Shown piece by piece: positions 4,596 to 45,839 of a DNA stretch of 64,000 nt. The stretch is from contig CAVCJG010000001.1 of the NCBI GenBank assembly GCA_963602685.1, positions 122,683 to 186,682 on the forward strand. The letters run 5' to 3'. The notes below the pieces were generated by a model. The model did not search any database, was not told the DNA's origin, and worked only from the letters and a program-made list of their open reading frames with translations. This stretch comes from Eggerthellaceae bacterium (lineage in GTDB: Bacteria; Bacillota; Clostridia; Christensenellales; UBA1242). Positions within the stretch are counted from its first letter, which is position 1, and each line of letters begins with the position of its first letter. Position numbers and translations under genes: made by a program.

Positions 4596-5771
4596 GTGTC
4601 AAGAAAAGTTTATTTGGACAATGCGGCAACAACATATGTTTCAACCGAAGTTCTCAATGAAATGATGCCATGCTTCAACGTTATTTACGGCAACCCAAGT
4701 TCAATTCACGGATTTGGAAGAGAAGCAGCAGCAATCGTTGACCGCGCAAGAGACAGAGTTGCAAACGCAATCAACGCCAAAAACTCAAACGAAATATACT
4801 TTACTGCAGGCGGATCAGAGGCAGACAACTGGGCAATCAAAGGTCTTGCACATGCCTATGCAAACAAGGGCAAACACATCATCACATCAGCAATCGAACA
4901 TCATGCTATATTGGATGCTTGTGCGGCACTTGAAAAAGAAGGCTTTGAAATCACCTATCTTCCAGTTGACAAATATGGTCTTGTAAGCGTTGCAGAACTG
5001 ATGCATGCAATCAGAAAGGATACAATTTTGATTTCAATCATGGCTGTAAACAACGAAGTAGGAACGATTCAAAACATCAAAACAATCGCAAAAACAGCGC
5101 ACGAAAACGGAATCATCTTCCACACTGATGCAGTTCAAGCAATCGGGGCAGTAAAGATTGATGTTCAAGACATGGAAATCGATGCATTAAGCATGTCTGC
5201 ACACAAGATTTACGGACCAAAAGGCGCTGGTGCTTTATATCTTAAAAATGGCATCAGAATCGAAAGCCTTATAAGTGGCGGAAATCAAGAACGCGGAAAA
5301 CGTGGCGGGACACTCAACGTTCCAGCAATCGCCGGCTTTGGCAAAGCGATTGAAATCGCAGTTCGCGACCTTGCAATCAACCAACAAAAACTCCGTTCAA
5401 TCAGAGAATACTTCCTTTCAAAAGTGAAAGAAAACATTGAATACATCCATGTAAACGGACATCCACACCAAAAAATTCAAGGAACAGTAAGCATTTCATT
5501 TGAAATGGTAGAAGGCGAAAGCATTTTAATGCTCTGCGACCTTGAAGGTGTTGCAGTGTCAACATCATCAGCATGCACATCAAACTCTCTTCAACCATCG
5601 CACGTTTTAAGAGCAATGGGCATTGAAGACGAAATTGCTCAAGGCACAATCAGATTCTCATTTGGCAAAAACATTTCAAAAGCCGATGTAGACTATGCGG
5701 TAGAAGTTTTAGCAAACGCAGTTAAAAAACTCAGAGCAATTTCACCAATCACAAAAGCAGGAAGGAGGTAA
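4596..5771 (+). CDS. nifS: cysteine desulfurase (NifS/IscS class V aminotransferase)
   Basis: VYLDNAATT at the N-terminus, the SAHKIYGPKG pyridoxal-Lys motif and the active-site loop SSACTS are present. GTG start with RBS AAAGGAGAAA; followed by iscU. Confidence 0.85.
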   Translation: MSRKVYLDNAATTYVSTEVLNEMMPCFNVIYGNPSSIHGFGREAAAIVDRARDRVANAINAKNSNEIYFTAGGSEADNWAIKGLAHAYANKGKHIITSAIEHHAILDACAALEKEGFEITYLPVDKYGLVSVAELMHAIRKDTILISIMAVNNEVGTIQNIKTIAKTAHENGIIFHTDAVQAIGAVKIDVQDMEIDALSMSAHKIYGPKGAGALYLKNGIRIESLISGGNQERGKRGGTLNVPAIAGFGKAIEIAVRDLAINQQKLRSIREYFLSKVKENIEYIHVNGHPHQKIQGTVSISFEMVEGESILMLCDLEGVAVSTSSACTSNSLQPSHVLRAMGIEDEIAQGTIRFSFGKNISKADVDYAVEVLANAVKKLRAISPITKAGRR

Positions 5772-5773
5772 AT

Positions 5774-6178
5774 ATGTATAACAAAAAAGTTTTATCAATT
5801 TTCCAAAACCCAAAAAATGCTGGTGGCATGAAAGGTGCCAACGGAATCGGCAAAGTAGGGAATGCTGCTTGCGGTGACATTATGAAAATCTATCTTCTTA
5901 TTGAAGACGGTATAATTAAAGATGCAAAATTCAAAACATTTGGATGCTGCGCAGCGATTGCATCAACAGATGTAGCTTGTGACCTTATCAAAGGCATGAC
6001 AATCGAAGATGCACTCAAAGTGACAAACAAACAAGTATTTGACATCTTAGGGGATTTGCCACCACACAAAATTCATTGCTCAGTTTTGGCTGAAGAAGCA
6101 ATCAAAGCAGCAGTTGATGACTATTATAAACGTCTTGAAAAAGCGGAAAAGAAAAACGCAGAAAACGACGAAGACTAA
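5774..6178 (+). CDS. iscU: Fe-S cluster assembly scaffold IscU/NifU N-terminal type
   Basis: NPKNAG.., GNAACGD, FKTFGCCAAIAS and PPHKIHCS conserved Cys motifs; RBS GGAAGGAGG. Confidence 0.85.
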   Translation: MYNKKVLSIFQNPKNAGGMKGANGIGKVGNAACGDIMKIYLLIEDGIIKDAKFKTFGCCAAIASTDVACDLIKGMTIEDALKVTNKQVFDILGDLPPHKIHCSVLAEEAIKAAVDDYYKRLEKAEKKNAENDED

Positions 6179-6190
6179 AACTGTAAGCTC

Positions 6191-6218
6191 AAAAAACACG
6201 CATTCGCGTGTTTTTTTT
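6191..6218 (+). terminator. rho-independent terminator after iscU
   Basis: Stem acacgc/gcgtgt with loop attc, followed by T8. Confidence 0.8.
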
Positions 6219-6237
6219 ATTTTAAACCAACCGTAAT

Positions 6238-6338
6238 GCACACGCAGTGTGCCATCATGCACGCATCAGCGTGCCATCCTGCATGCGCAAGCATGCCATA
6301 ATGTCACCAAAGGTGACTATCATGCTGACGCAGTCAGC
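6238..6338. repeat. array A of 5 tandem short GC-rich hairpins with CATCAT-like linkers
   Basis: The units start at 6238, 6259, 6281, 6303 and 6324. Each has a perfect 6-bp stem and a 3-4 nt loop. The linkers are CATCAT, CATCCT, CATAAT, TATCAT and CAATTT. Confidence 0.85.
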
Positions 6339-6423
6339 CAATTTGTCCACATAGGAATGATATGAAAGCACCCAAAAAATCCTGCGTCAAGCCCAAATTG
6401 TGACGGAATGTATGCAAAAACGC

Positions 6424-6452
6424 TTGACGTTTTTTTTTTTTTTCACTAGAAT
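6424..6452 (+). promoter_or_regulatory. promoter of giant surface protein gene A with a T14 tract in the spacer
   Basis: TTGACG (6424-6429), a 17-nt spacer made of T14 (6430-6443) plus cac, then TAGAAT (6447-6452). The flanks are conserved with locus B. Confidence 0.6.
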
Positions 6453-6584
6453 TAAGTTATAAAGATATCCACAAAAACTTAAAAAATAAATATTTATAAT
6501 ATTTAACAAACCTAAAACAATCAAATTTTGTCGAAAAACATTAGGTAATTTTGTCGAAAATGAGTAGAATATATAAAGGGAAAA

Positions 6585-9500
6585 ATGATAAAGACAAAGG
6601 CAAACGTAATTAAAATTCTTTTTATCGTTTTATTGTCGCTGTTGATGATGACAGGCGGCATAGTCTTTTTATGCAGTGAAGTCTCAACTCCGCCATCTCA
6701 AATGGAAGAACAAGTCGACGAAGTTAAAGCTGCAACCAACAACAACTATATTAGATGGACATCTTATGGTGCAAATGGACAAATTGGTTCTAATTTTGGT
6801 GGCTATGTATGGTCGGGATATGCAGGAGCTCAAAATTATAGAGGTGGTTTTGGAAAGACTGCTACTCAATCTACCGGCACTGATAGTAGTTCACTTACAA
6901 GAATTGCGGGGCAGTCGAATAGAGGTATCGTATTTAACACAGCGGTCACCAATTACAAAACAGGCCTCAGAGCTGGAGTATTAAGAATTTACTCCGATGG
7001 GAATCTATATGCTGCGGTTAGCTTGGATAGCTTAAGTGGAACAAGTGCTGAACGTGGAAGCATAAATTATAAAAACGATATATATTGGGATGTTTATTTA
7101 TATTATACCATCGCCTATACGGTAACTTGGAGTTATTGGCCTACAGAATATGGAAGTTTGCTTCATTACGATAAAAACTCACTAGTATATAGATATGATA
7201 CATCATCAGGTAGTGGCCAATGGTGGTGGACTGTTGATGGCGAGACTCAGCATGGAAGTCCATTGCTTCCATCGCGAACGGGTTATGCTTTTTCGGGACT
7301 GCAGACATCAAGTGGGCAAAAAATTATCAACTCTTCTATGGGCTGGGCAGGCTATTGGAATGCCAGCACAGCATATTGGGCACAATTATACGATAGTTGG
7401 ACACCATATACATATGAAGTCACTGCAAATGCAAATGGTGGTTCAATTCCTTCAACATCAGGTTGGAGTGGAACAGGTTCAACAGCAACAAAAACTGTTA
7501 CTTTTGATTCAACGTATGGCACACTTCCAACTCCAACCAGGACAGGTTATACATTTGGTGGCTGGTATACATCTTCAACTGGCGGGACAAAAATTGAGTC
7601 GAGCACAACGGTAAAAACAGCCAGTGATCATACAATTTATGCACATTGGACTGTAAATAATTATAACCTTAAAGTAGATCCAGCATCAGGTTCGTATAAC
7701 AATTCAACAGGTCTTACTTCAATTACACAAAATTACGGAACATCTTATACATACTTAACTCCAACAAAAACAGGATATAACTTTGACGGATGGCACACAG
7801 GCCAAAATTATTTGAGTTCGGCAAAAACATTTGACGGCTCATCTACATATGTTGCAGTCGGTCGTTCGCCTATGTATACAAGTGGCATTTCGGTTGCCGT
7901 CAGGGCAACTATGGACAGCTGGAGCGATTTTAAGACAAGTAATATGCGGCTAGTCTCCTGCACGGAAAGCGGTGGCTGGAACTTTGAGCCAAACGGCGAA
8001 TATGTCCAGTTTGCGTGTTATGACAGCGGTGTGGGATACAAATCCGCTAAAGCAAGCATAAAATGGTCCGATTTAGCGACGGGATATCACACTTTCACAG
8101 GAACTTTTGATGGTGAATATGCAAGAGTTTATATCGATGGTAAACTATATGGAACTTCAGCAAAATTCACATCTGGTAAAATTGGCTATCACGCGTCAAA
8201 CGGAATATTTATTGGTGCGGAAGCGGGCTCAAATGCGACAACTCCTGCGGGAAATTACTTTAAAGGAACTATTGACTATGTAGCAATTTCAAACAGTGGC
8301 ACAGTGTCAAAGCCAACATCGTTTACTTTCCCAGCTTACAACTCGGCATCAACAGCGCAATGGACAGCAAAAACATTTACTTTGACATTTGATGGCAATG
8401 GTGGCGGAACACCTAGCCCAACATCTAAAACTATCACATATGACAGCACTTATGGCACATTAGCGTCGGTTTCACGAACAGGTTACACCTTTAGTGGCTG
8501 GTGGACGGCTGCATCGGGTGGATCGCAGATAACGGAAAGCACAAAAGTGACCGTTACTGCCAACCAAACCGTCTATGCTCACTGGACAGTAAACAACTAT
8601 AATTTAACTCTTGCGCCAAACAGCGGATATTATGAATCGAGCAATGCTAATCGAACATATTCGGGGGCGTATGGTTCGACATCGTATTTTGGAGCGCCAC
8701 TCCGAACAGGTTATACGTTTGAAGGTTACACGCTTAGTGGGGCGGGCACACTTTCCGAACGCAAAGCGTCATCAGGATTTTCTTCAGCGACATTAAAAAG
8801 CGACGCCAACGGCGCGTATTACAATTATACTTTCTCAGGAACTCGACCAAGCAGTGACAGTTGGCCAAGCATACAGTATCCGGCGTATTCGTTTACCGCG
8901 GGGAAGACGTATGTGTTAAGCTTGAAAATAAGAGTCAATTCAACAACTGACGGCTTTTCAATTCGTCACGCGTCAATCTCAAACGACTGGGTTTGCCCAA
9001 TGCGCGGCTTTAGTAGTTCAACAAGCGGCTGGGTTGATGTAACGCTGGAACAAACGATCGGCGAAAATTACACGCGTTCAGGCACGTCTTATACATCGTC
9101 GCCACGACTTGAAATCTATATGAATTCAACCAAGGCAACAGGGTCGAACGGAACAACTTATAAAGTAGACTTTGATATTAGAAATATAGTTGTATATGAA
9201 AAAATATCAGGTCAAACCGCTTTTTCATCAATCTCTTACACTTACGGTGCAGACGCCGGAACAATAACAGCCAACTGGCAAGTTAAAAATTACAGCGTAA
9301 GCATCGATCCAAATGGCGGAACATACAGCGGAAGCACGGCAGCAAAAAGCGTAAGCGGAAACTACGGAACTACAACAACAATTTCAGATCCTACTAGAAC
9401 TGGCTACACCTTTGCTGGTTGGATTGCAACAAAAACAGATCTCAGCACAACATGGGCGCAAATTCTCTATCACGATACGGTTTATGGCACAAGTCTGTTT

Positions 9501-11882
9501 GCGTCCAGCGACGATTTAGCGTCAAAGGTTGTCAACACAACAACTAAAAACAGCCAATTTGCAACACTCGCAAAACTTAATTTGACAAGTTATGAGTTCT
9601 TGCTTCAATATCATCATACTTTGCAAACCGGAAGCTCAATGTATGCGAGAGAATACAACCGCTGGAAGCAAACATCAAATCCAGCAACGACTTCTGAATC
9701 CGTGAGCGGATATCAGGCGGTTTCAATTTCATGGAATACAAATACAAATTCATCGGCATTCCAAGGAATTGCTAAATCAAATTATTCTGGCACATTCATT
9801 GATGGAACAATCGGACATTCAAATTGGTTCTATGCGTTGGGCGCATCTGAAGCATGGAACGGGGGAATCCCAGGACCAAGCAGCGCCGAAACAAACATTG
9901 TAACCTTGTATCTTGCAACTGACAGCTCGCTGTCAAACTTTAAACCAACAGCAACATTCAAAGATGCGGATGCCTTAGGCTCGGACAACAAATATTACTT
10001 TAAAGACGAATCAGTAACTCTTAAAGCGCTTTGGATTGTAAACAGCTACACACTTACCGCAAAGGCAAATTCAGGATCAATCAAAGCAACGACAGGTTGG
10101 ACTGGCACTGGCACAACTGCAACAAAATCGGTGACATATAATACTGCATACGGAACTTTGCCAACAGTAGAAAGAACAGGATATGGATTTGCTGGTTGGT
10201 ATACAGCAGCAACAGGTGGAACAAAGGTTGATGCCAACACAAAAATAGGGGCAGCAAACGCAACTATTTACGCTCATTGGAGCATAAATTCATACACGCT
10301 TTATGCAAATTGCAATGGCGGATCAGCCCCAAGCACGCTTCCAACAGGATGGACAGCAAATGGAACGATGCCACAACGCTCAGTCAATTACAACGATACG
10401 TATGGAACACTTCCAGAGCCAACAAGACAAGGATATATCTTCGCCGGTTGGTGGACACAAGCAAGTGGCGGAAGTGAAGTGTATAATGGTACAAGAATGG
10501 GTGCGGCAGACGCTACAATCTATGCTCATTGGGTAGAAAGCTGGGTTAAATATATGTCAAGTGACAATCCTGTAATAGATCAAGCGGATGGTTATTACAA
10601 AATCGATTCAGCTGAAAGACTTGCACGTCTTGCATACCTTGTAAATTACAACATTGACAACGGCAAATGGGCAAGTTATAAATACAAACAAACCGCAGAT
10701 ATTGACCTTTCAGCACACTATTGGCAACCTATTGGATTGGAGACATATCCATTTTGTGGGACATTTGATGGCACCACATTTGATATTCACAACATGAAGA
10801 CATATTGCGAATCGGAATATTACTATTACTATAATACATATTTAGCTCAAGGTTTATTTGGAGTAGGAAGATCTATAAAAGTCTTGAATGTAAATATATA
10901 TGACGTTAATGTAAAAGGCAATGGAGCAGGTATTGTAGCTAAATGGGACAAAAATACAAGCGATAACAAAATTACAAATTGCCGAGTAACTGGTAAAATA
11001 AATGGTGATAACACAGGAGGTATCCTGGGAGATTCATATGGTGATGGAGTAATATCTAAATGCGAAAATTATGCAGACATTTATTCTGAAGACAGCACTT
11101 CTGGTGGAATCGTAGCTAGTAATTATTCACAAAATAGTTTTATAGTGTCGGAATGCGTAAATTATGGTGAAATCCATGCGTCAGGTGATGCAACAGGCGG
11201 TGGAATAATCGGAATTTGTGATGTCGGTACTGTAGAAAATTGTGTAAATTATGGTGACGTCGGAGATTATGGTGATACAGGTGGTATTGTAGGATTTGCA
11301 ATAAAAAATGTAACCATTAGAAATTGTATAAATAACGCAGATGTCATTGGCGCTTATGAGGTCGGTGGTATTCTTGGTGGAGCGAACAACAGTGTTTCTA
11401 TTAGCAATTGTATAAATATCGGAAGCTTAACAAATGAACAAGGATCGGTCGGCGGCATAGTTGGTGAAAACTATGGCGGCCAAGTTTCAATCGAGTCTTG
11501 TTTTGCTGATTGCCAAGTTGTGATCGGGGAAAAAGTTGGTGCGATTTTAGGTTCAACAGATACTTCTGATGTAACTATTACATATTGTGGCGCTAGAATA
11601 ACTATTCTTACGACAATAGCAAATGTGGGGGCATTCTACAATGCTGATAGTGGAGTGACTGTGACGTGCAATGATTCTTATTCACTTGTCAATAACAATG
11701 GAACAAAAATCAACCGCATCACTGCAACAAGCAGCGGAATGGATGGTAAGTTTGGAATGGTTTCATCAATTCATGATGGATTGCCAGTTCCACTTGGAAT
11801 CTACCATGTAAGCCAATATGGAACAACAAAAGGCATTGCTTCTACCTTAAAGGGAAGCAAATACGGCTGCACAACCGCTTAA
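6585..11882 (+). CDS. giant surface protein A (1765 aa): N-terminal membrane anchor, Listeria-Bacteroides (InlB B-type) repeats, LamG-like module, C-terminal GLUG repeats
   Basis: The N-terminal hydrophobic segment is ILFIVLLSLLMMTGGIVFLC. Repeats of the form TRTGYTFxGWYTxxxGGTKxxxxTxxxxxxxxIYAHW recur many times. The LamG-like region runs FDGSSTYVAV..YFKGTIDYVAISN. GG(I/L)(V/L/I)G motifs recur in the last ~300 aa. Confidence 0.9.
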   Translation: MIKTKANVIKILFIVLLSLLMMTGGIVFLCSEVSTPPSQMEEQVDEVKAATNNNYIRWTSYGANGQIGSNFGGYVWSGYAGAQNYRGGFGKTATQSTGTDSSSLTRIAGQSNRGIVFNTAVTNYKTGLRAGVLRIYSDGNLYAAVSLDSLSGTSAERGSINYKNDIYWDVYLYYTIAYTVTWSYWPTEYGSLLHYDKNSLVYRYDTSSGSGQWWWTVDGETQHGSPLLPSRTGYAFSGLQTSSGQKIINSSMGWAGYWNASTAYWAQLYDSWTPYTYEVTANANGGSIPSTSGWSGTGSTATKTVTFDSTYGTLPTPTRTGYTFGGWYTSSTGGTKIESSTTVKTASDHTIYAHWTVNNYNLKVDPASGSYNNSTGLTSITQNYGTSYTYLTPTKTGYNFDGWHTGQNYLSSAKTFDGSSTYVAVGRSPMYTSGISVAVRATMDSWSDFKTSNMRLVSCTESGGWNFEPNGEYVQFACYDSGVGYKSAKASIKWSDLATGYHTFTGTFDGEYARVYIDGKLYGTSAKFTSGKIGYHASNGIFIGAEAGSNATTPAGNYFKGTIDYVAISNSGTVSKPTSFTFPAYNSASTAQWTAKTFTLTFDGNGGGTPSPTSKTITYDSTYGTLASVSRTGYTFSGWWTAASGGSQITESTKVTVTANQTVYAHWTVNNYNLTLAPNSGYYESSNANRTYSGAYGSTSYFGAPLRTGYTFEGYTLSGAGTLSERKASSGFSSATLKSDANGAYYNYTFSGTRPSSDSWPSIQYPAYSFTAGKTYVLSLKIRVNSTTDGFSIRHASISNDWVCPMRGFSSSTSGWVDVTLEQTIGENYTRSGTSYTSSPRLEIYMNSTKATGSNGTTYKVDFDIRNIVVYEKISGQTAFSSISYTYGADAGTITANWQVKNYSVSIDPNGGTYSGSTAAKSVSGNYGTTTTISDPTRTGYTFAGWIATKTDLSTTWAQILYHDTVYGTSLFASSDDLASKVVNTTTKNSQFATLAKLNLTSYEFLLQYHHTLQTGSSMYAREYNRWKQTSNPATTSESVSGYQAVSISWNTNTNSSAFQGIAKSNYSGTFIDGTIGHSNWFYALGASEAWNGGIPGPSSAETNIVTLYLATDSSLSNFKPTATFKDADALGSDNKYYFKDESVTLKALWIVNSYTLTAKANSGSIKATTGWTGTGTTATKSVTYNTAYGTLPTVERTGYGFAGWYTAATGGTKVDANTKIGAANATIYAHWSINSYTLYANCNGGSAPSTLPTGWTANGTMPQRSVNYNDTYGTLPEPTRQGYIFAGWWTQASGGSEVYNGTRMGAADATIYAHWVESWVKYMSSDNPVIDQADGYYKIDSAERLARLAYLVNYNIDNGKWASYKYKQTADIDLSAHYWQPIGLETYPFCGTFDGTTFDIHNMKTYCESEYYYYYNTYLAQGLFGVGRSIKVLNVNIYDVNVKGNGAGIVAKWDKNTSDNKITNCRVTGKINGDNTGGILGDSYGDGVISKCENYADIYSEDSTSGGIVASNYSQNSFIVSECVNYGEIHASGDATGGGIIGICDVGTVENCVNYGDVGDYGDTGGIVGFAIKNVTIRNCINNADVIGAYEVGGILGGANNSVSISNCINIGSLTNEQGSVGGIVGENYGGQVSIESCFADCQVVIGEKVGAILGSTDTSDVTITYCGARITILTTIANVGAFYNADSGVTVTCNDSYSLVNNNGTKINRITATSSGMDGKFGMVSSIHDGLPVPLGIYHVSQYGTTKGIASTLKGSKYGCTTA
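7829..8300 (+). other. LamG / concanavalin-A-like lectin module inside protein A (absent from protein B)
   Basis: The pattern FDGSSTYVAVG..MRLVSCTESGGW..YHTFTGTFDGEYARVYIDGKLYG..IFIGAEAG..YFKGTIDYVAISN is typical of Laminin_G_3-type domains. Confidence 0.55.
8571..10808 (+). repeat. long paralogous segment shared with 42541..44780 (direct orientation)
   Basis: About 745 codons align colinearly with protein B, mostly identical residues by eye (HWTVNNY..SERKASSGF..QVKNYSVSIDPNGGTY..YKYKQTADIDLSAHYWQPIG..HNMKTYC). Confidence 0.9.
10850..11600 (+). repeat. GLUG-type repeat region of protein A
   Basis: Motifs such as GAGIVA, TGGILGD, SGGIVAS, GGGIIGI, TGGIVGF, VGGILGG and VGGIVGE recur roughly every 20-25 aa. 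Confidence 0.6.
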
Positions 11883-12151: not shown

Positions 12152-12418
12152 CCGAGCAAATGCTTTGTCAATGTTAAACCAGCTGCCACAAACATTGCTG
12201 GCTCCACCAAAGTTTCCTCATGGCACACAGTTGGATTCCCTTAATGATGCTTCCGTCAGGACCTGACATGGTTCAGGAGCAACTGTTGCATAAGACCTTG
12301 ATTTCAACGCCAATAAAGTTTGCACATTTCCGACCTAACAAAGCCTAGGCAAGCGTTCAATCCTGCTGTAGCGGGTTGCAGGTTACAGGGCACCGCTAAC
12401 TCCCCATCTAGCTCGGTT
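12152..12418 (-). ncRNA. ffs: signal recognition particle RNA, long Bacillus-type (scRNA with Alu domain)
   Basis: The reverse complement contains GGGGAGTTAGCGGTGCCCTGTAACCTGCAACCCGCT and GAACCATGTCAGGTCCTGACGGAAGCATCATTAAGG. These closely match the 5' Alu and domain IV regions of B. subtilis scRNA. The ends CCGAGC/GCTCGG pair and a T7 run follows. Length about 267 nt. Confidence 0.85.
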
Positions 12419-39124: not shown

Positions 39125-39204
39125 TTTTCCACATTGTCCAAATAAAAAAACAAAAAATTATTTCACGCATCGCCAAAATTGTGACGGATTGTATGCAAAA
39201 TTGC

Positions 39205-39233
39205 TTGACGTTTTTTTTTTTTACAGGTAAAAT
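39205..39233 (+). promoter_or_regulatory. promoter of giant surface protein gene B with a T12 tract in the spacer
   Basis: TTGACG (39205-39210), a 17-nt spacer made of T12 (39211-39222) plus acagg, then TAAAAT (39228-39233). Confidence 0.6.
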
Positions 39234-39404
39234 TATTATAGATATTGTCCACAGAAACAAAAAATTCAAGAAAAAAACATCGAATTTATCAATAATTATT
39301 TTTTTGTCGAAAAACGTTAGGTAGTTTTAATAAAATCGGTTAAAATAAATTATGGAATAAATATATAATTAAATATTATTGTTAATATTTTCAAGGAGGA
39401 AGGT

Positions 39405-42400
39405 TTGATTAAACGTAAGCTCAGTTACAGCAAATTAATGTATCTGTTGGTAGCGCTTAGCCTTTCTTTTTTTATTTTCGGAATCGTCTTTCTTTCTTGC
39501 TTTAATGTAAATGACAACTCGCAAGACTCGTCCGAAGCGGCAATCACGTATTGGACAGATTATGCTGCTGATTCTTTTGCAGGCGGAAACGGAACAGAGT
39601 CTAGCCCTTATCTCATTGAAACGGCAGCGCAGCTTGCACGCTTAGCGAAATTAATAAACAATAAAGACACAACTGCAGCTTGGAATTCAAAATATTATAA
39701 ACAAACTGCGAATATTGATTTAAGTACTGGCGGACATATATGGTATCCGATAGGGAATAGTTCATTTGATGAAGAAGCCGAAAATAATCACACTGTCTTA
39801 AAAAATGCTACGGTTCCTTTTAAGGGTACATATGATGGTGATGGGCATATTGTTAAAGGAATTAAAAATTCTTTACTAAGTTCAACAGGCGGCTTGTTTG
39901 GATCGGGAAGAGGCTGTACAATCAAAAACGTTGGAGTGTTAAACCCAGAAAGAATATATGGCATTTATGGTGCGGGGAGCATTTTAGGGGCTGCACTTTC
40001 GTTTAACGATAGCGGCACGACACTTAATGATGCTTGTAATGTCCTAAATTGTTTCAGTGCTGGTGGGACATATATTGGCGGAGCAAAGTACGGCGCAGGC
40101 GGAATTATAGGCTATGCGTATATTGGTGGTATAGAAAATTGTTATAATGCTAGTTCGGGTTTAGTTTCTTCATCAGCTACTGGTGGATTAATCGGATATG
40201 GAGTTTTTGGGGTGGCTTCATATTCTTATAATATTGGTGGTATGTCAACGAGCTCAAATTATCCTCAAGGCGGGATATTTGGTGCTAATGGTTTATCATC
40301 GGCAACCAGCGTTTTTAGTGTTGGAAAAAGAAACACTTCAAAGTATGCTGGTGTAAGTGGGAATTGTTTAGAGTCAGGAGTAACACCTTCATGTTCTAAA
40401 GTTTTCCATACAGCCATCGTCGATTATAATCAATGGAATATGTCTGCAGATCCGCCTGCTATTACTTCAGGTGGCACTCTGTCTGGAGTTTCGCGTCCAT
40501 CAAACTTGGAAACACAGGCAAAAGACTGGAGTTGGTTTAGCACAAATATAGATGCAGGGAATAATAACTATAAATTAAACAGCACAATTATTGAAAATGA
40601 CGGATATCCTGTTCTTTCTGTATTTTGCAAAAATGTAACAGCAAATGCAAATGGCGGCTCAGTGGTAAGTGGCAATGGTTGGCCAGCAGGTTCTACATCG
40701 ACGAAGACAATGGTCAATGGCTATCTTAATATGCCAACAGCAACAAGAACCGGATACACTTTTGATGGTTGGTATACGGCAGCAAGTGGTGGAACTAAAG
40801 TTGAACCTACTTGGGCAGACATGAAAGAAAGCATACCTTCAACAATTTACGCCCATTGGTCAAGAAATAGCTATTCAATAAGCACTGACCTTCGTGGTGG
40901 AACTACATACAAAAATATTATAACACCTTCAACAATTTGCGACAGCTGGACGGCTTCGACAAGTTATTCCAACTATATGACACTTCAATATGACGCTCCA
41001 AGTGGCGTTTATACAATGACAAACACAGCAGCAGGCAATGACCCATATGCAACAGGAAATCAAACCGTTTATTTGTCAACTGGCAAAACTTATGTTATGC
41101 ACGCGATTTGCACTGATAATTCAGGAGTTTCTGTAACTGGCAATCCTTTGCAAGTCTTTTATGGAATAAGTCTGGGCTACAGCGAAGCAAACAGCAAGCG
41201 GTTTGGTGAAACGACGACGCAAGAATTTACGGTTTCCACGTCTGGAACTTACAATTTCCGGTTTGACAACGACTTTTCTTATGCAAGCGGTGGAGTGATG
41301 AAAGTGCGAGAGTTCTGGGTTGCAGAAAAATCGCAATCAACGGCGACTCAATCTTATTCCGTTCCATATCAAGGATATTATCCTGCGGCGAATCCGACTA
41401 AAGAAGGTTACACATTTGCAGGCTGGAAAGAACTTTTAAACACAACAACGAATGTTACATTAAGTACAAGCACTTCAAATTACAATTATTTGCCAATGTT
41501 GACGGGTGTTGTTCCGGGTACGAAATATGAAATAACAATCGGAACGGCAAAACTAACATCTGGCTCTGCAAGCCAATTTACAACATTAATTTATGACTTT
41601 ACGACAAGCAAAACTTTAGCAAGTGCGACAAATAATTTTGGATCAAATGTTTCTTATACACTTACTTGTCCAAGTTCGGCAACCGCGTCAAACGATATTC
41701 GAATAATTATTTATGCAGGCATTAGTGGCGCGACGGCAAATAATGCGGCATCATATTCAAACATTCAAATCTTCTCTAGTAATGTTTTAGGTTCATATTC
41801 TGCTTTACATAACACAAGCACAGCAAGCAAAACTTATTATGCGCAATGGCTTCCTGTTGCGAGCAAAGTTACATTTAACCCAAATGGGGGGACAATAACT
41901 TCTGGCAATGCAACAGATTATGTGACATATGGCGCGACATATGCGGGCAAGACAAACATCTATCGCCCTATATTTGGTTCGCTTGCGCTTACAAATTCAG
42001 GAAATATATTCAGTGTCAATGTCGACAATTCGTCTGGAACAAGTGTCAAGTATGCAAATTTCATGTCTTCGTATGACGGCGCAACGGTGCAACCAAACAC
42101 AACTTACACGGTTGTAATTAAGGTGACCGCTTATAGTGGGAATCAATTAAAGATTAATTTTACTTCACCTTATGATATCGGCTCAAGTGGGTTAGGCGAT
42201 ACGGCAACGTCAACTTGTTGGTTTGATATTTCGAACACGGGCGTTTACTACAAGACATTTACAACAAAAGCAAACCTTAATGGTTCATATTTTAATTTTA
42301 GATCCTACATTCCTGTTGATGCTGGCAAAAAGGCGATTGCAACCTTCCAAGTTGCGGTTTTCGCCGGCTCGTTCAACTCAAATCCTACAAATTCAACCTT

Positions 42401-45400
42401 TGAGTATCATGAAGCAGCAAGCGGGAATGCTCTTCCTGTCGCTACAAGAACGGGTTATACATTTGACGGCTGGTTTACAGCTGAAACAGGCGGAACAAAA
42501 GTTTCAGCCGACACGATAGTTACAAACGCAAGTGATCATGTGTTGTATGCTCATTGGACGGTGAACAACTATGATTTGATTCTGTCACCTAATGACGGAT
42601 ATTATGAATCAAGCAGCTCAGACAGAACTTATACTGCTGCTTATGGCACGACTTCATACTTTGGAATGCCACTTCGAACGGGTTATACGTTTGAAGGCTA
42701 CACGCATACTGGTTCGGGCACGCTTTCCGAACGAAAAGCATCATCGGGCTTTACTTCTGCCACATTAAAGAGCGATTCAAACGGCGCCTATTACAATTAT
42801 ACTTTCTCAGGAACGCGACCAAGCAGTGACAGCTGGCCAAGCATCCAATATCCAACCTATTCGTTTACAGCAGGGAAGACGTATGTATTAAACTTTAAAA
42901 TTAGAGTAAATTCAACAACTGATAGTTTCGCGGTTCGTCACTCGTCAATCGCAAACGACTGGGTATGCCCAATGCGCGGCTTTAGTGGCGCGACAAATGG
43001 TTGGGTTGATGTAACTCTGGAGCAAACTATCGGCGAAAACTACACGCGTTCAGGCTCGTCTTATACATCATCTCCACGACTTGAAATCTACATGAATTCA
43101 ACCAAGGCAACAGGGTCAAACGGCGACTCATACAAGGTTGATTTTGATATTAAAAACATTGTTATATATGAAAAAGGAACAGGGAAAACCGCATTTACGT
43201 CTATTGTTTACACTTATGGTGCTGGAGCAGGAACGCTGACAGCGAAATGGCAAGTTAAAAATTATAGCGTGAGCATCGATCCAAATGGTGGAACATATGG
43301 CGGAAGCACGACTGCAACAAGCGTAAGCGGAAACTATGGAACTACAACAACAATTTCAGATCCAACAAGAACTGGCTATACCTTTGCTGGTTGGATTGCA
43401 ACAAAAACCGATCTCAGTACGACATGGGCGCAAATTCTCTATCATGATGCCGTTTATGGCTCAAGTCTGTTTACGTCAGGCGATAACTTGGCGTCAAATG
43501 TTGTCAATACAACGACTAAAAACAGTCAATTTGCAACACTTGCAAAACTTAATTTGACAAGTTATGAGTTCTTACTTCAATATCATCACACATTGCAAGC
43601 GGGAAGTTCAATGTATGCGCGAGAATACAACCGCTGGAAGCAAACATCAAATCCAGCAACGACAACAGAAGCAGTAAGTGGATATGAAGTGGTTTCGATT
43701 TCGTGGAATACAAATACGAATTCGACCGCATTCCAAGGGATTGCGAGATCAAACAGTGGGGCCACCTTTATTGACGGAACAATCGGGCACTCAGACTGGT
43801 TCTATGCTCTCGGATCATATAATGAATGGAACGGGGGAATTCCAGGACCAAGCAGCGCCGAAACAAACATTGTAACTTTGTATCTTGCAACAGACAGCTC
43901 GCTTTCAAACTTTAAACCAACGGCAACATTCAAAGATGCTGACGCTTTAGGCTCAAACAATACATATTACTTTAAAGACGAATCAGTAACTCTTAAAGCA
44001 CTTTGGATTGCCAACATTTACAAACTTACAGCAAACGCCAATGGCGGATCAATTCCGGAAACCACAGGCTGGAGCGGAACAGGCGCAACAGCAACAAAGT
44101 CAGTCGTTTATGACACTGCATACGGCACACTTCCAGTGCCAACAAGAACAGGCTATGGCTTTGCTGGTTGGTATAGATCGGCATCAGGCGGAATGGGAGT
44201 CAGCGCAACCACAAAAATGGGAGCGGCAAACGTAACAATTTACGCTAATTGGGAATTAAATTCATACACTCTTACGGCTGACTGCAATGGCGGAACAGCG
44301 CCAAGCACGCTTCCAACAGGTTGGACGGCAAATGGAACTGCACCATATATAACACTTAATTATGATGCTGATTATGGAATTCTTCCAGTGCCAACAAGAC
44401 AAGGATATATATTTGCTGGCTGGTGGACGGCAGCTAGCGCAGGCAGTGAAGTAAACTACAAGACAAAAATTGGAGCGGGCGATACAAAAATCTACGCGCA
44501 TTGGGTTGAAAGCTGGGTTAAATATATGTCAGACGACAACCCAGTATTGGATCAAGCGGACGGCTATTACAAAATCGACTCAGCTGCAAAACTTGCACGT
44601 CTTGCATATCTTGTAAATAGTAACGCGGACAACGGCAAATGGGCAAGTTATAAATACAAGCAAACCGCCGACATCGACCTTTCAGCACACTACTGGCAGC
44701 CAATCGGTAACGCAACATATCAATTTAAAGGGATTTTCGACGGCACAACGTTCGACTTCCACAACATGAAAACATATTGCGGAGTAAACGGATATGCTTC
44801 ATATGATTATTATGGGCTATTTGGTTATACAAAATCAGCTGAAATTCGAAATGTAAACAACTATGATATTGACATGAAATGCAGAGAATACTCGGGCGGT
44901 ATAGTGGGTAAATCCAGAGCAGGCACTATTGAAAATTGTAAAGTGACTGGGAAAATATCGGGCATATCTAATTTTACAGCGGGCATTACTGGCGAAAGTT
45001 CTTCAACAATTAAAGATTGCGTGAACTATGCTTCGGTCACTTCAGACTACTATGCTGTTGCAGGAATCGTCGGTGATGGTAGTGGGACAATTGAAAATTG
45101 CATCAATTATGGAAATATTACAGCATACGAATTTGCGGGCGGAATTGTTGGAAGAGCGTTTGGAGGAAATATTGAAAATTGTGTAAATGAAGGCAATATT
45201 ACTTGTACTTATCATATGGTTGGTGGTATCGCAGGCGAAATTTCATATGGGAACATTGTTTCGTGTAGCAATTTAGGCATTGTAACAGGTTTAGTTTACG
45301 TTGGCGGAATAGTAGGACAAAGTTCTTCTTCAGATGATATAACAATTTCTCAATGTTTAAACACCGGGGATATTGTTATTACGGATACAGACAGGACTAC

Positions 45401-45839
45401 ATATGCTGGTGGAATATTGGGAAATGCTTACACGGCTACAACGATAGAATCGTGTTTTGCTGATTTCAAAATTACTTCAAATAAAACAATTACGTTTGGA
45501 TCAATTTTGGGCTATGCTGAATACAACGTTACGATAAAATATTGTGGCGCTAGGATTACTACAACATCGAATCTGCCTGCGACAACAGTTTATGGGAATA
45601 AGAAAACATCGGCAACAGTTACGGCAAACGATTGGTATTCATTGTTAACTATTAGAGGAAATAAAATAAATCGTATTGCCACGACAAGCAGCGGAATGGA
45701 TGGTAAGTTTGGAATGATCTCATCAATTCATGATGGATTGCCAGTTCCACTTGGAATCTACCATGTAAGCCAATATGGAACAACCACAGGCATTGCTTCA
45801 ACCTTAACGGGAAGTAAATACGGCTGCACAACCGCGTAA
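39405..45839 (+). CDS. giant surface protein B (2144 aa): N-terminal anchor, GLUG module at both ends, B-type repeats, beta-rich unknown modules
   Basis: TTG start 4 nt after AAGGAGGAAGG. The N-terminus MIKRKL..LVALSLSFFIFGIVFLSC is homologous to protein A. The architecture is mosaic, with a central ~745 aa and the last ~60 aa nearly identical to A. Confidence 0.9.
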   Translation: MIKRKLSYSKLMYLLVALSLSFFIFGIVFLSCFNVNDNSQDSSEAAITYWTDYAADSFAGGNGTESSPYLIETAAQLARLAKLINNKDTTAAWNSKYYKQTANIDLSTGGHIWYPIGNSSFDEEAENNHTVLKNATVPFKGTYDGDGHIVKGIKNSLLSSTGGLFGSGRGCTIKNVGVLNPERIYGIYGAGSILGAALSFNDSGTTLNDACNVLNCFSAGGTYIGGAKYGAGGIIGYAYIGGIENCYNASSGLVSSSATGGLIGYGVFGVASYSYNIGGMSTSSNYPQGGIFGANGLSSATSVFSVGKRNTSKYAGVSGNCLESGVTPSCSKVFHTAIVDYNQWNMSADPPAITSGGTLSGVSRPSNLETQAKDWSWFSTNIDAGNNNYKLNSTIIENDGYPVLSVFCKNVTANANGGSVVSGNGWPAGSTSTKTMVNGYLNMPTATRTGYTFDGWYTAASGGTKVEPTWADMKESIPSTIYAHWSRNSYSISTDLRGGTTYKNIITPSTICDSWTASTSYSNYMTLQYDAPSGVYTMTNTAAGNDPYATGNQTVYLSTGKTYVMHAICTDNSGVSVTGNPLQVFYGISLGYSEANSKRFGETTTQEFTVSTSGTYNFRFDNDFSYASGGVMKVREFWVAEKSQSTATQSYSVPYQGYYPAANPTKEGYTFAGWKELLNTTTNVTLSTSTSNYNYLPMLTGVVPGTKYEITIGTAKLTSGSASQFTTLIYDFTTSKTLASATNNFGSNVSYTLTCPSSATASNDIRIIIYAGISGATANNAASYSNIQIFSSNVLGSYSALHNTSTASKTYYAQWLPVASKVTFNPNGGTITSGNATDYVTYGATYAGKTNIYRPIFGSLALTNSGNIFSVNVDNSSGTSVKYANFMSSYDGATVQPNTTYTVVIKVTAYSGNQLKINFTSPYDIGSSGLGDTATSTCWFDISNTGVYYKTFTTKANLNGSYFNFRSYIPVDAGKKAIATFQVAVFAGSFNSNPTNSTFEYHEAASGNALPVATRTGYTFDGWFTAETGGTKVSADTIVTNASDHVLYAHWTVNNYDLILSPNDGYYESSSSDRTYTAAYGTTSYFGMPLRTGYTFEGYTHTGSGTLSERKASSGFTSATLKSDSNGAYYNYTFSGTRPSSDSWPSIQYPTYSFTAGKTYVLNFKIRVNSTTDSFAVRHSSIANDWVCPMRGFSGATNGWVDVTLEQTIGENYTRSGSSYTSSPRLEIYMNSTKATGSNGDSYKVDFDIKNIVIYEKGTGKTAFTSIVYTYGAGAGTLTAKWQVKNYSVSIDPNGGTYGGSTTATSVSGNYGTTTTISDPTRTGYTFAGWIATKTDLSTTWAQILYHDAVYGSSLFTSGDNLASNVVNTTTKNSQFATLAKLNLTSYEFLLQYHHTLQAGSSMYAREYNRWKQTSNPATTTEAVSGYEVVSISWNTNTNSTAFQGIARSNSGATFIDGTIGHSDWFYALGSYNEWNGGIPGPSSAETNIVTLYLATDSSLSNFKPTATFKDADALGSNNTYYFKDESVTLKALWIANIYKLTANANGGSIPETTGWSGTGATATKSVVYDTAYGTLPVPTRTGYGFAGWYRSASGGMGVSATTKMGAANVTIYANWELNSYTLTADCNGGTAPSTLPTGWTANGTAPYITLNYDADYGILPVPTRQGYIFAGWWTAASAGSEVNYKTKIGAGDTKIYAHWVESWVKYMSDDNPVLDQADGYYKIDSAAKLARLAYLVNSNADNGKWASYKYKQTADIDLSAHYWQPIGNATYQFKGIFDGTTFDFHNMKTYCGVNGYASYDYYGLFGYTKSAEIRNVNNYDIDMKCREYSGGIVGKSRAGTIENCKVTGKISGISNFTAGITGESSSTIKDCVNYASVTSDYYAVAGIVGDGSGTIENCINYGNITAYEFAGGIVGRAFGGNIENCVNEGNITCTYHMVGGIAGEISYGNIVSCSNLGIVTGLVYVGGIVGQSSSSDDITISQCLNTGDIVITDTDRTTYAGGILGNAYTATTIESCFADFKITSNKTITFGSILGYAEYNVTIKYCGARITTTSNLPATTVYGNKKTSATVTANDWYSLLTIRGNKINRIATTSSGMDGKFGMISSIHDGLPVPLGIYHVSQYGTTTGIASTLTGSKYGCTTA
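39890..40300 (+). repeat. N-terminal GLUG-type repeat region of protein B
   Basis: TGGLFGS, GAGSILGA, GAGGIIGY, TGGLIGY and QGGIFGA motifs follow a YLIETAAQLARLAKLIN..YYKQTANIDL..FKGTYDGDGHIV lead-in. That lead-in parallels the C-terminal module. Confidence 0.6.
42541..44780 (+). repeat. long paralogous segment shared with 8571..10808
   Basis: See the feature at 8571. The two segments are colinear, in direct orientation and about 34 kb apart. Confidence 0.9.
44815..45560 (+). repeat. C-terminal GLUG-type repeat region of protein B
   Basis: SGGIVGK, VAGIVGD, AGGIVGR, VGGIAGE, VGGIVGQ and AGGILGN motifs. The sequence diverges from the equivalent region of A. Confidence 0.6.

Follow-up and report, generated by a model that had tools for sequence, protein, structure and literature searches.

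On balance, we favour the view that P1, a predicted promoter preceding the gene for a giant surface protein, is genuinely read by the housekeeping sigma factor and that its slipping T-run spacer heritably tunes this gene in a graded rather than an ON/OFF manner. P1 lies in the window, i.e., the whole 64,000-nt stretch of DNA that was analyzed, which stems from an uncultured gut Clostridia lineage. The same kind of device would act upstream of a paralogous giant gene, gene B. At gene A, P1 is built from the following elements.

6398..6423, + strand: conserved block TTGTGACGGAATGTATGCAAAAACGC, 26 nt, directly 5' of the -35 box
6424..6429, + strand: -35 box TTGACG of P1
6430..6443, + strand: uninterrupted T14 tract, the putative hypermutable element
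6444-6446, + strand: CAC, completing the 17-nt spacer together with T14
6447..6452, + strand: -10 box TAGAAT of P1

The first-pass annotation had described this stretch (6424-6452, + strand) as TTGACG, T14 plus CAC and TAGAAT with a 17-nt spacer, and the sequence reads exactly so. It had also taken the T tract as the -35/-10 spacer of the promoter of the giant gene. In a sigma-70 consensus scanner, P1 was the best sigma-70-like candidate ahead of this gene and the sole promoter-like site on the + strand between 5700 and 7000, and it matched the consensus at 10/12 positions. The -10 box is 133 nt away from the start of the 1765-aa ORF. Sites of the same class were not enriched in the scanned region (4 found vs 4.1 expected in shuffles), and because they occur at chance frequency, the P1 hexamers alone prove nothing. 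The T14 tract, by itself, is well beyond chance length. T runs in the window comprise 19 T7, four T8 and two T9, and then just one T12 (39211-39222) and one T14. These two are the longest homopolymers in the 64 kb, T14 being the longest, and both lie in the range of about 9 nt or more in which uninterrupted homopolymers are regarded as prone to slippage.

The T12 run occupies the equivalent position upstream of the paralogue.

39205..39233, + strand: P1-B, consisting of TTGACG, T12 (39211-39222), ACAGG and TAAAAT with a 17-nt spacer, upstream of the gene for the 2144-aa paralogue

Here, the 17-nt spacer is made up of a shorter tract and two extra non-T bases (ACAGG vs CAC at locus A). Alignment showed that the upstream regions of loci A and B are paralogous and have in common a 32-nt block, the T-run, the -10 box, the TCCACA boxes described below and a leader block, TTTTGTCGAAAAACRTTAGGTARTTTT. 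The 32-nt block ends in the -35 box TTGACG and has two exact matches in the window vs 0 expected. The A-rich 3' part of TTGTGACGGAATGTATGCAAAAACGC occupies the place of a proximal UP element and could function as such; alternatively, it could be a factor binding site. As a promoter of the giant gene, P1 has in its favor the 10/12 match and boxes present in both paralogues; a candidate second promoter lies nearer to the gene.

The genes downstream of both promoters encode very large proteins.

6585..11882, + strand: giant protein A, 1765 aa, ATG start, with an N-terminal membrane/signal segment and six Flg_new (InlB B-repeat) stretches
39405..45839, + strand: giant protein B, 2144 aa, TTG start, with Flg_new repeats and GLUG motifs

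Both N-termini are basic and hydrophobic, and both proteins contain six Flg_new/TIGR02543 stretches. Together with the GLUG motifs of protein B, these features point to surface exposure or host interaction, and 'large surface protein' seems a fair description of either protein. As for the name giant adhesin A used in the first-pass annotation, the 1765-aa ORF is real and has surface-protein features, but 'adhesin' is a guess, as only B-repeats (and GLUG in the paralogue) were found. Against the class 1 internalins (InlA, InlH), the proteins scored 66-79 bits compared with NCBIfam cut-offs of 1050-1600, and the B-repeat region alone matched. Proteins A and B share 68% identity across the C-terminal 1200 aa. 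The N-terminal 580 residues of A (6585-8320) and 960 residues of B (39405-42290) are mutually unrelated, and N-termini of the giant proteins also vary between strains at one locus, which suggests that the exposed part may be replaced in a cassette-like manner. With the N-terminal 330 aa of protein A as query, matches were mostly B-repeat fragments; the only true N-terminal relative was P0001, which sits at a locus-B allele without P1.

For comparison of the two loci, we collected about 60 related gut-metagenome contigs. They were fetched by exact look-up of neighboring genes, i.e., NifU and variants, NifS and variants, thioredoxin and the 158-aa neighbor of locus B, and one further contig came from a DNA-pattern scan (JGI metagenomes, single match). 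None of these queries depended on tract length. Look-ups with HslU and with a 246-aa neighbor returned only short contigs of sample SRR13434679, apparently from the window's own strain. The 22-nt upstream block had no match in a DNA scan of GTDB representative genomes, and the closest NifU among these representatives, from a Christensenellales MAG, was only 74% identical; we therefore conclude that the species is absent from the GTDB representatives. All tract lengths given below are taken from consensus assemblies of short-read metagenomes, which are error-prone at long homopolymers.

Uninterrupted tracts varied in length at both loci. At locus A we found T14 (window), T14, T13, T13, T13, T15, T12, T12, T10 and T9, corresponding to natural spacers of 12-18 nt. 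At locus B, the lengths were T12 (window), T12, T11, T11 and T10; here, a contig of SRR13434679 was identical to the window and had T12. The differences occurred on near-identical flanks, with 0-1 differences per 477-530 nt. Contigs L097 and L098 showed 0/530 flank differences, yet had T12 and T9, respectively, and L007 with T14 differed from both of them at 1/477 positions. Likewise, L106 and L110 had T11 and T10 at 0/530 flank differences, and T12 was present on a haplotype one SNP away. T10, T11, T11 and T12 were found at locus B in four otherwise nearly identical contigs. Together with the contig breaks and the fixed interrupted tracts described below, this pattern is the population signature expected under slipped-strand hypermutability of a pure tract.

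Could the true tract be invariant and its length differences stem from sequencing or assembly? The related sequences were all assembled from short-read metagenomes, and contigs often break at the tract, which shows that assembly is difficult here. Of the uninterrupted lineage, at least four contigs (L008, L009, L010 and L100) end at the tract, in it or 13 nt before it, compared with none of the interrupted lineage described below. These breaks are the one hint at frequent, reversible changes in tract length inside clonal populations. Repeat collapse is an unlikely cause of them, because the two promoters have only about 20 nt in common around the tract and the k-mer sizes in the contig names (k109 to k141) exceed this length. 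Moreover, artefacts would have to account for a 5-nt gap (T9 vs T14) at one flank difference in 477 nt and for equal lengths recurring in independent samples (T11 in L104 and L106; T13 in L001, L003 and L138; T12 in the window and L092). Within haplotype groups, none of the other runs in these flanks, which reach 8 nt, differed in length. With differences reaching 5 nt and lengths recurring in independent samples, we consider an assembly artefact improbable.

A second class of alleles carries tracts interrupted by other bases and served as an internal stable control. T7AT5 with a 16-nt spacer is the commonest allele of the species (24 fetched loci), followed by T8AT5 with 17 nt (11 fetched loci); a few loci of either type represent one contig fetched twice. 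T9AT4 (17 nt) was found at two loci, which are one contig fetched twice, and T9A7C (17 nt) at two loci. Within lineages, interrupted tracts were fixed at 16-17 nt, with a single T7-to-T8 change inside one flank haplotype; length polymorphism was confined to uninterrupted alleles. A comparison of tract lengths across strains and metagenomes, as proposed in the first-pass annotation, hence gave T9-T15 for pure tracts, including identical flanks, and invariant lengths for interrupted ones. The emphasis placed there on exactly 17 nt did not hold, given the 16-nt spacer of T7AT5. Three of the four interrupted types (T8AT5, T9AT4 and T9A7C) keep 17 nt by differing sequences, which suggests that spacing matters. 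The commonest pure lengths, T13 and T14, equal T7AT5 and T8AT5 after one A-to-T substitution. Such a single change may have 'unlocked' hypermutability in the lineage of the window, the majority of strains being 'locked'. Hypermutability is therefore not conserved across the species, in most strains of which the tract is interrupted and stable.

Sequence conservation around P1 bears on the question whether the tract has a function. TTGACG and TA[G/A]AAT were present in every complete allele fetched that carries the upstream block (19 flank haplotypes, both loci), where, however, both hexamers had been part of the search pattern for alleles and only the sixth base of the -35 box is an independent observation. 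The core of the 26-nt block, ACGGAWTGTATGCAAAA, was kept in the 19 flank haplotypes as well. Beyond about -70, sequences turn over rapidly: between the window and L007 we counted 72/372 differences in this part and one difference in the 119 nt downstream. That both boxes and the 26-nt block are kept in both paralogues and in all strains, while neighboring DNA turns over, argues for selection on P1.

A proximal element between P1 and the giant gene has to be considered as an alternative source of transcripts. The terminator of the upstream operon is listed with it, as it marks the end point of a deletion described below.

6191..6220, + strand: intrinsic terminator of the nifS-nifU operon, 11-bp stem and T-run, at the start of the intergenic region
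6526..6570, + strand: conserved proximal block with direct repeats TTTTGTCGAAAA and candidate promoter P2, the sole promoter candidate in alleles without P1
6526-6537 and 6549-6560: two copies of TTTTGTCGAAAA in the gene A leader, 23 nt apart
39302-39313: single copy of TTTTGTCGAAAA in the gene B leader

In the window, the candidate P2 consists of TAGGTA (6542-6547), 17 nt and TAGAAT (6565-6570) and agrees with the consensus at 8/12 positions vs 10/12 for P1. The direct repeat TTTTGTCGAAAA overlaps this candidate promoter. Window-wide, TTTTGTCGAAAA was not enriched (3 matches vs 3.0 expected), and all three matches are inside the two leader regions.

Seven locus-B contigs (L103, L105, L107, L108 and L111-113) are devoid of the whole cassette of palindrome array and P1. 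Their intergenic region of 145-163 nt contains the proximal block only, for which the scanner reported TTGGTA, 17 nt and TAAAAT, and the giant ORF was long and open in the four of these contigs for which downstream sequence was fetched. At locus A, a deletion in L004 and L096 fuses the T-run of the nifU terminator to ACTAGAAT, and the -35 box is gone. These two alleles have TTGTAA, 16 nt and a TG-extended TATACT at the proximal position, which is stronger than P2 of the window. Since intact giant-gene alleles exist without P1, P1 is dispensable for the gene family. The giant gene family hence probably has a proximal promoter, P2, to which P1 would be an upstream add-on. As a separate observation, the giant gene has exchanged its N-terminal part along with the deletion at locus A.

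From these alleles the main rival explanation arises, namely that the tract is unstable but functionally unimportant: the gene would be driven mainly from the proximal block, P1 would be weak, accessory or silent, and its tract would vary neutrally, as noise in a T-rich spacer from which some lineages have lost the interrupting A. Besides the long intact ORFs behind a proximal block alone and the good extended -10 promoter in L004 and L096, the stable interrupted tracts in most of the species agree with it. There is also a precedent in Mycoplasma agalactiae vpma, where a T-tract next to the -10 box was shown experimentally to have no role in phase variation (PMC2268961). Like vpma, P1 controls a surface-protein gene and has a homopolymeric T-tract immediately 5' of its -10 box, and vpma is therefore a cautionary counter-example. 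What argues against neutral instability is the conservation of boxes and 26-nt block amid sequence turnover, three independent interrupted alleles that hold 17 nt by different sequences, and the poorer consensus match of the window's proximal element. Any 12-15-nt homopolymer is unstable regardless of function, and with n=15 lengths, selection and neutral slippage are inseparable. We regard neutral instability as possible, though unlikely.

A T-run downstream of complementary sequence might alternatively belong to a transcript from upstream, as an intrinsic terminator's tail or as part of another RNA element. In the haplotype of the window, GCGTCAAGC (6386-6394) is the exact complement of GCTTGACGC (6422-6430, spanning the -35 box), with a calculated -15.2 kcal/mol. 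This pairing, however, encloses a 27-nt loop, has a z-score of -1.69 and is missing in the paralogue and in other alleles (z +1.86, +0.82 and +0.40). A terminator scan was negative at the T-runs of both loci, no convincing Rfam family was found in either upstream region (best 21 bits vs a threshold of 50), and at locus B no co-directional upstream gene is present that would have to be terminated. We rejected an intrinsic terminator at the T-run, given that no scanner match was obtained and that the sole stem is haplotype-specific with a 27-nt loop; an RNA element of this kind is very improbable.

We therefore return to P1 as a promoter with a slipping spacer, for which we propose the following mechanism. 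Transcription from P1 would read through the AT-rich leader of about 125 nt into the giant gene. At replication, the T run would gain or lose bases through slipped-strand mispairing, and each slip would shift the -35/-10 spacing and thereby move P1 activity heritably and reversibly up or down. P2 would probably supply some tract-independent transcription, so that a graded 'volume control' would result. We infer transcription start site, slippage mechanism, effect on transcription and adaptive value from the sequence comparisons described above. The first-pass annotation had proposed a phase-variation switch; the length polymorphism between near-identical strains agrees with this proposal. Because the proximal element is the only promoter candidate in P1-less alleles, volume control on one of two promoters is likelier than a strict ON/OFF switch.

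Promoters with repeat tracts of variable length have been described in a number of bacteria. In Neisseria meningitidis porA, opc and fetA and in Bordetella fim, the length of a promoter poly-G/poly-C tract sets the -35/-10 spacing and leads to graded or ON/OFF expression. With these systems, P1 shares a homopolymer in the promoter of outer-surface protein genes; they differ in having G/C tracts and Gram-negative pathogens as hosts, compared with a T tract in a commensal of the Bacillota. Spacer indels between -35 and -10 switch M. hyorhinis vlp, M. arthritidis maa2 and M. mycoides vmm ON and OFF (PMC2268961). In vlp (poly-A), maa2 and vmm, as in P1, an A/T repeat tract is located in the -35/-10 spacer of surface-protein genes, and in vlp it is a homopolymer. 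Like the mycoplasma switches, several paralogous genes each have their own tract here. In contrast to the mycoplasmas, the host is not a mollicute but belongs to the gut Clostridia, and the products are B-repeat proteins of 1765-2144 aa instead of small lipoproteins. Moreover, a second, tract-independent promoter is likely here and most tracts are interrupted and stable, and switching is proposed from sequence in the present case.

The closest poly-T case is the adhesin gene sabA of Helicobacter pylori, in which the promoter tract ranges from T5 to T28 across strains and slipped-strand mispairing leads to a graded tuning of transcription, i.e., a 'rheostat' (PMC4081817). The sabA tract adjoins the -35 box on its upstream side and acts via phasing of UP-like elements (PMC4081817). 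Like P1, sabA has a poly-T tract at a surface-protein promoter, and strain surveys provide evidence of the same kind. The upstream position that marks a sabA-type rheostat is not found at P1, where the tract is located downstream of the -35 box, within the spacer. Taken together, the locus is a credible candidate for a promoter-spacer repeat switch, i.e., a known mechanism in an unusual host.

Phase variation in gut commensals is known chiefly from invertible promoters, in Bacteroidales and some Clostridia, and for gut Clostridia the one literature search on repeat-driven switches found none. If our proposal is true, a widespread uncultured lineage of the human and animal gut varies the dose of two giant, fast-diversifying surface proteins through slippage. 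The coexistence of natural locked (interrupted) and unlocked (pure) alleles in one species would then be a ready-made natural experiment. The mechanism will not surprise a specialist, and public data would allow a direct test. As a caution, the polishing of MAGs should leave homopolymer lengths at loci of this kind uncollapsed.

Upstream of P1, the genes flanking locus A are housekeeping genes, i.e., nifS and nifU with their terminator, followed by an array of palindromes and by TCCACA boxes on both sides of P1.

4596-5771: Aminotran_5 ORF
5774-6178: NifU_N ORF
6238..6338, unstranded: palindrome array A, five perfect units of 15-16 nt with 6-bp stems, 21-22 nt period
6346-6351 and 6468-6473, + strand: TCCACA boxes of locus A at about -80 and +15, on either side of P1
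38998..39123, unstranded: palindrome array B, six units, 5' of P1-B
39130-39135 and about 39249-39254: TCCACA boxes of locus B

The TCCACA boxes are conserved at both loci and between strains; the downstream one lies about 16-21 nt beyond the -10 box of P1. A regulator may use them as a pair of operators.

Across the arrays, the stems (5-9 bp) are all different, loops have 3-4 nt, often GCA or GCAA, and a constant 6-nt linker (CATCAT and variants) separates the units, mostly of 15-16 nt, at a period of 21-22 nt in both arrays. The first unit, GCACACGCAGTGTGC, is conserved, and the others fall into few related families with paired changes, e.g., GCACGC/GCGTGC vs GCATGC/GCATGC. Number (3-9) and sequence of the units vary between strains; arrays were also found in L001, L002, L003, L005, L006, L008, L101 and L104. 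All 39 of 39 loci with A-interrupted tracts (T7AT5, T8AT5 and T9AT4) were devoid of the array, and the T9A7C alleles are split, with an array in L002 and none in L140. None of 80 other Clostridia had such an array at its NifU locus, and the arrays had no Rfam match. Only tentatively, and with considerable doubt, do we suggest that T-tract promoter, palindrome array, TCCACA boxes and the TTGTGACGGAATGTATGCAAAAACGC-type block could form a modular gain-and-loss cassette that is swapped among giant loci and strains, with the array as an undescribed structured repeat. In this view, the array, whose hairpin units are about two DNA turns apart, may affect promoter activity, insulation or local instability.

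Two further features lie close to the giant genes. Near locus B, the segment 34598-36784 contains a tRNA-Arg gene and, after it, a 662-aa ORF, whose match in related contigs has Pfam families of a TraG/TrwB-type coupling protein of type IV secretion; this region may be a remnant or the edge of a conjugative element. Just 3' of giant gene A, a large-type bacterial SRP RNA (Rfam RF01854, 159 bits) is encoded on the - strand at 12152-12416.
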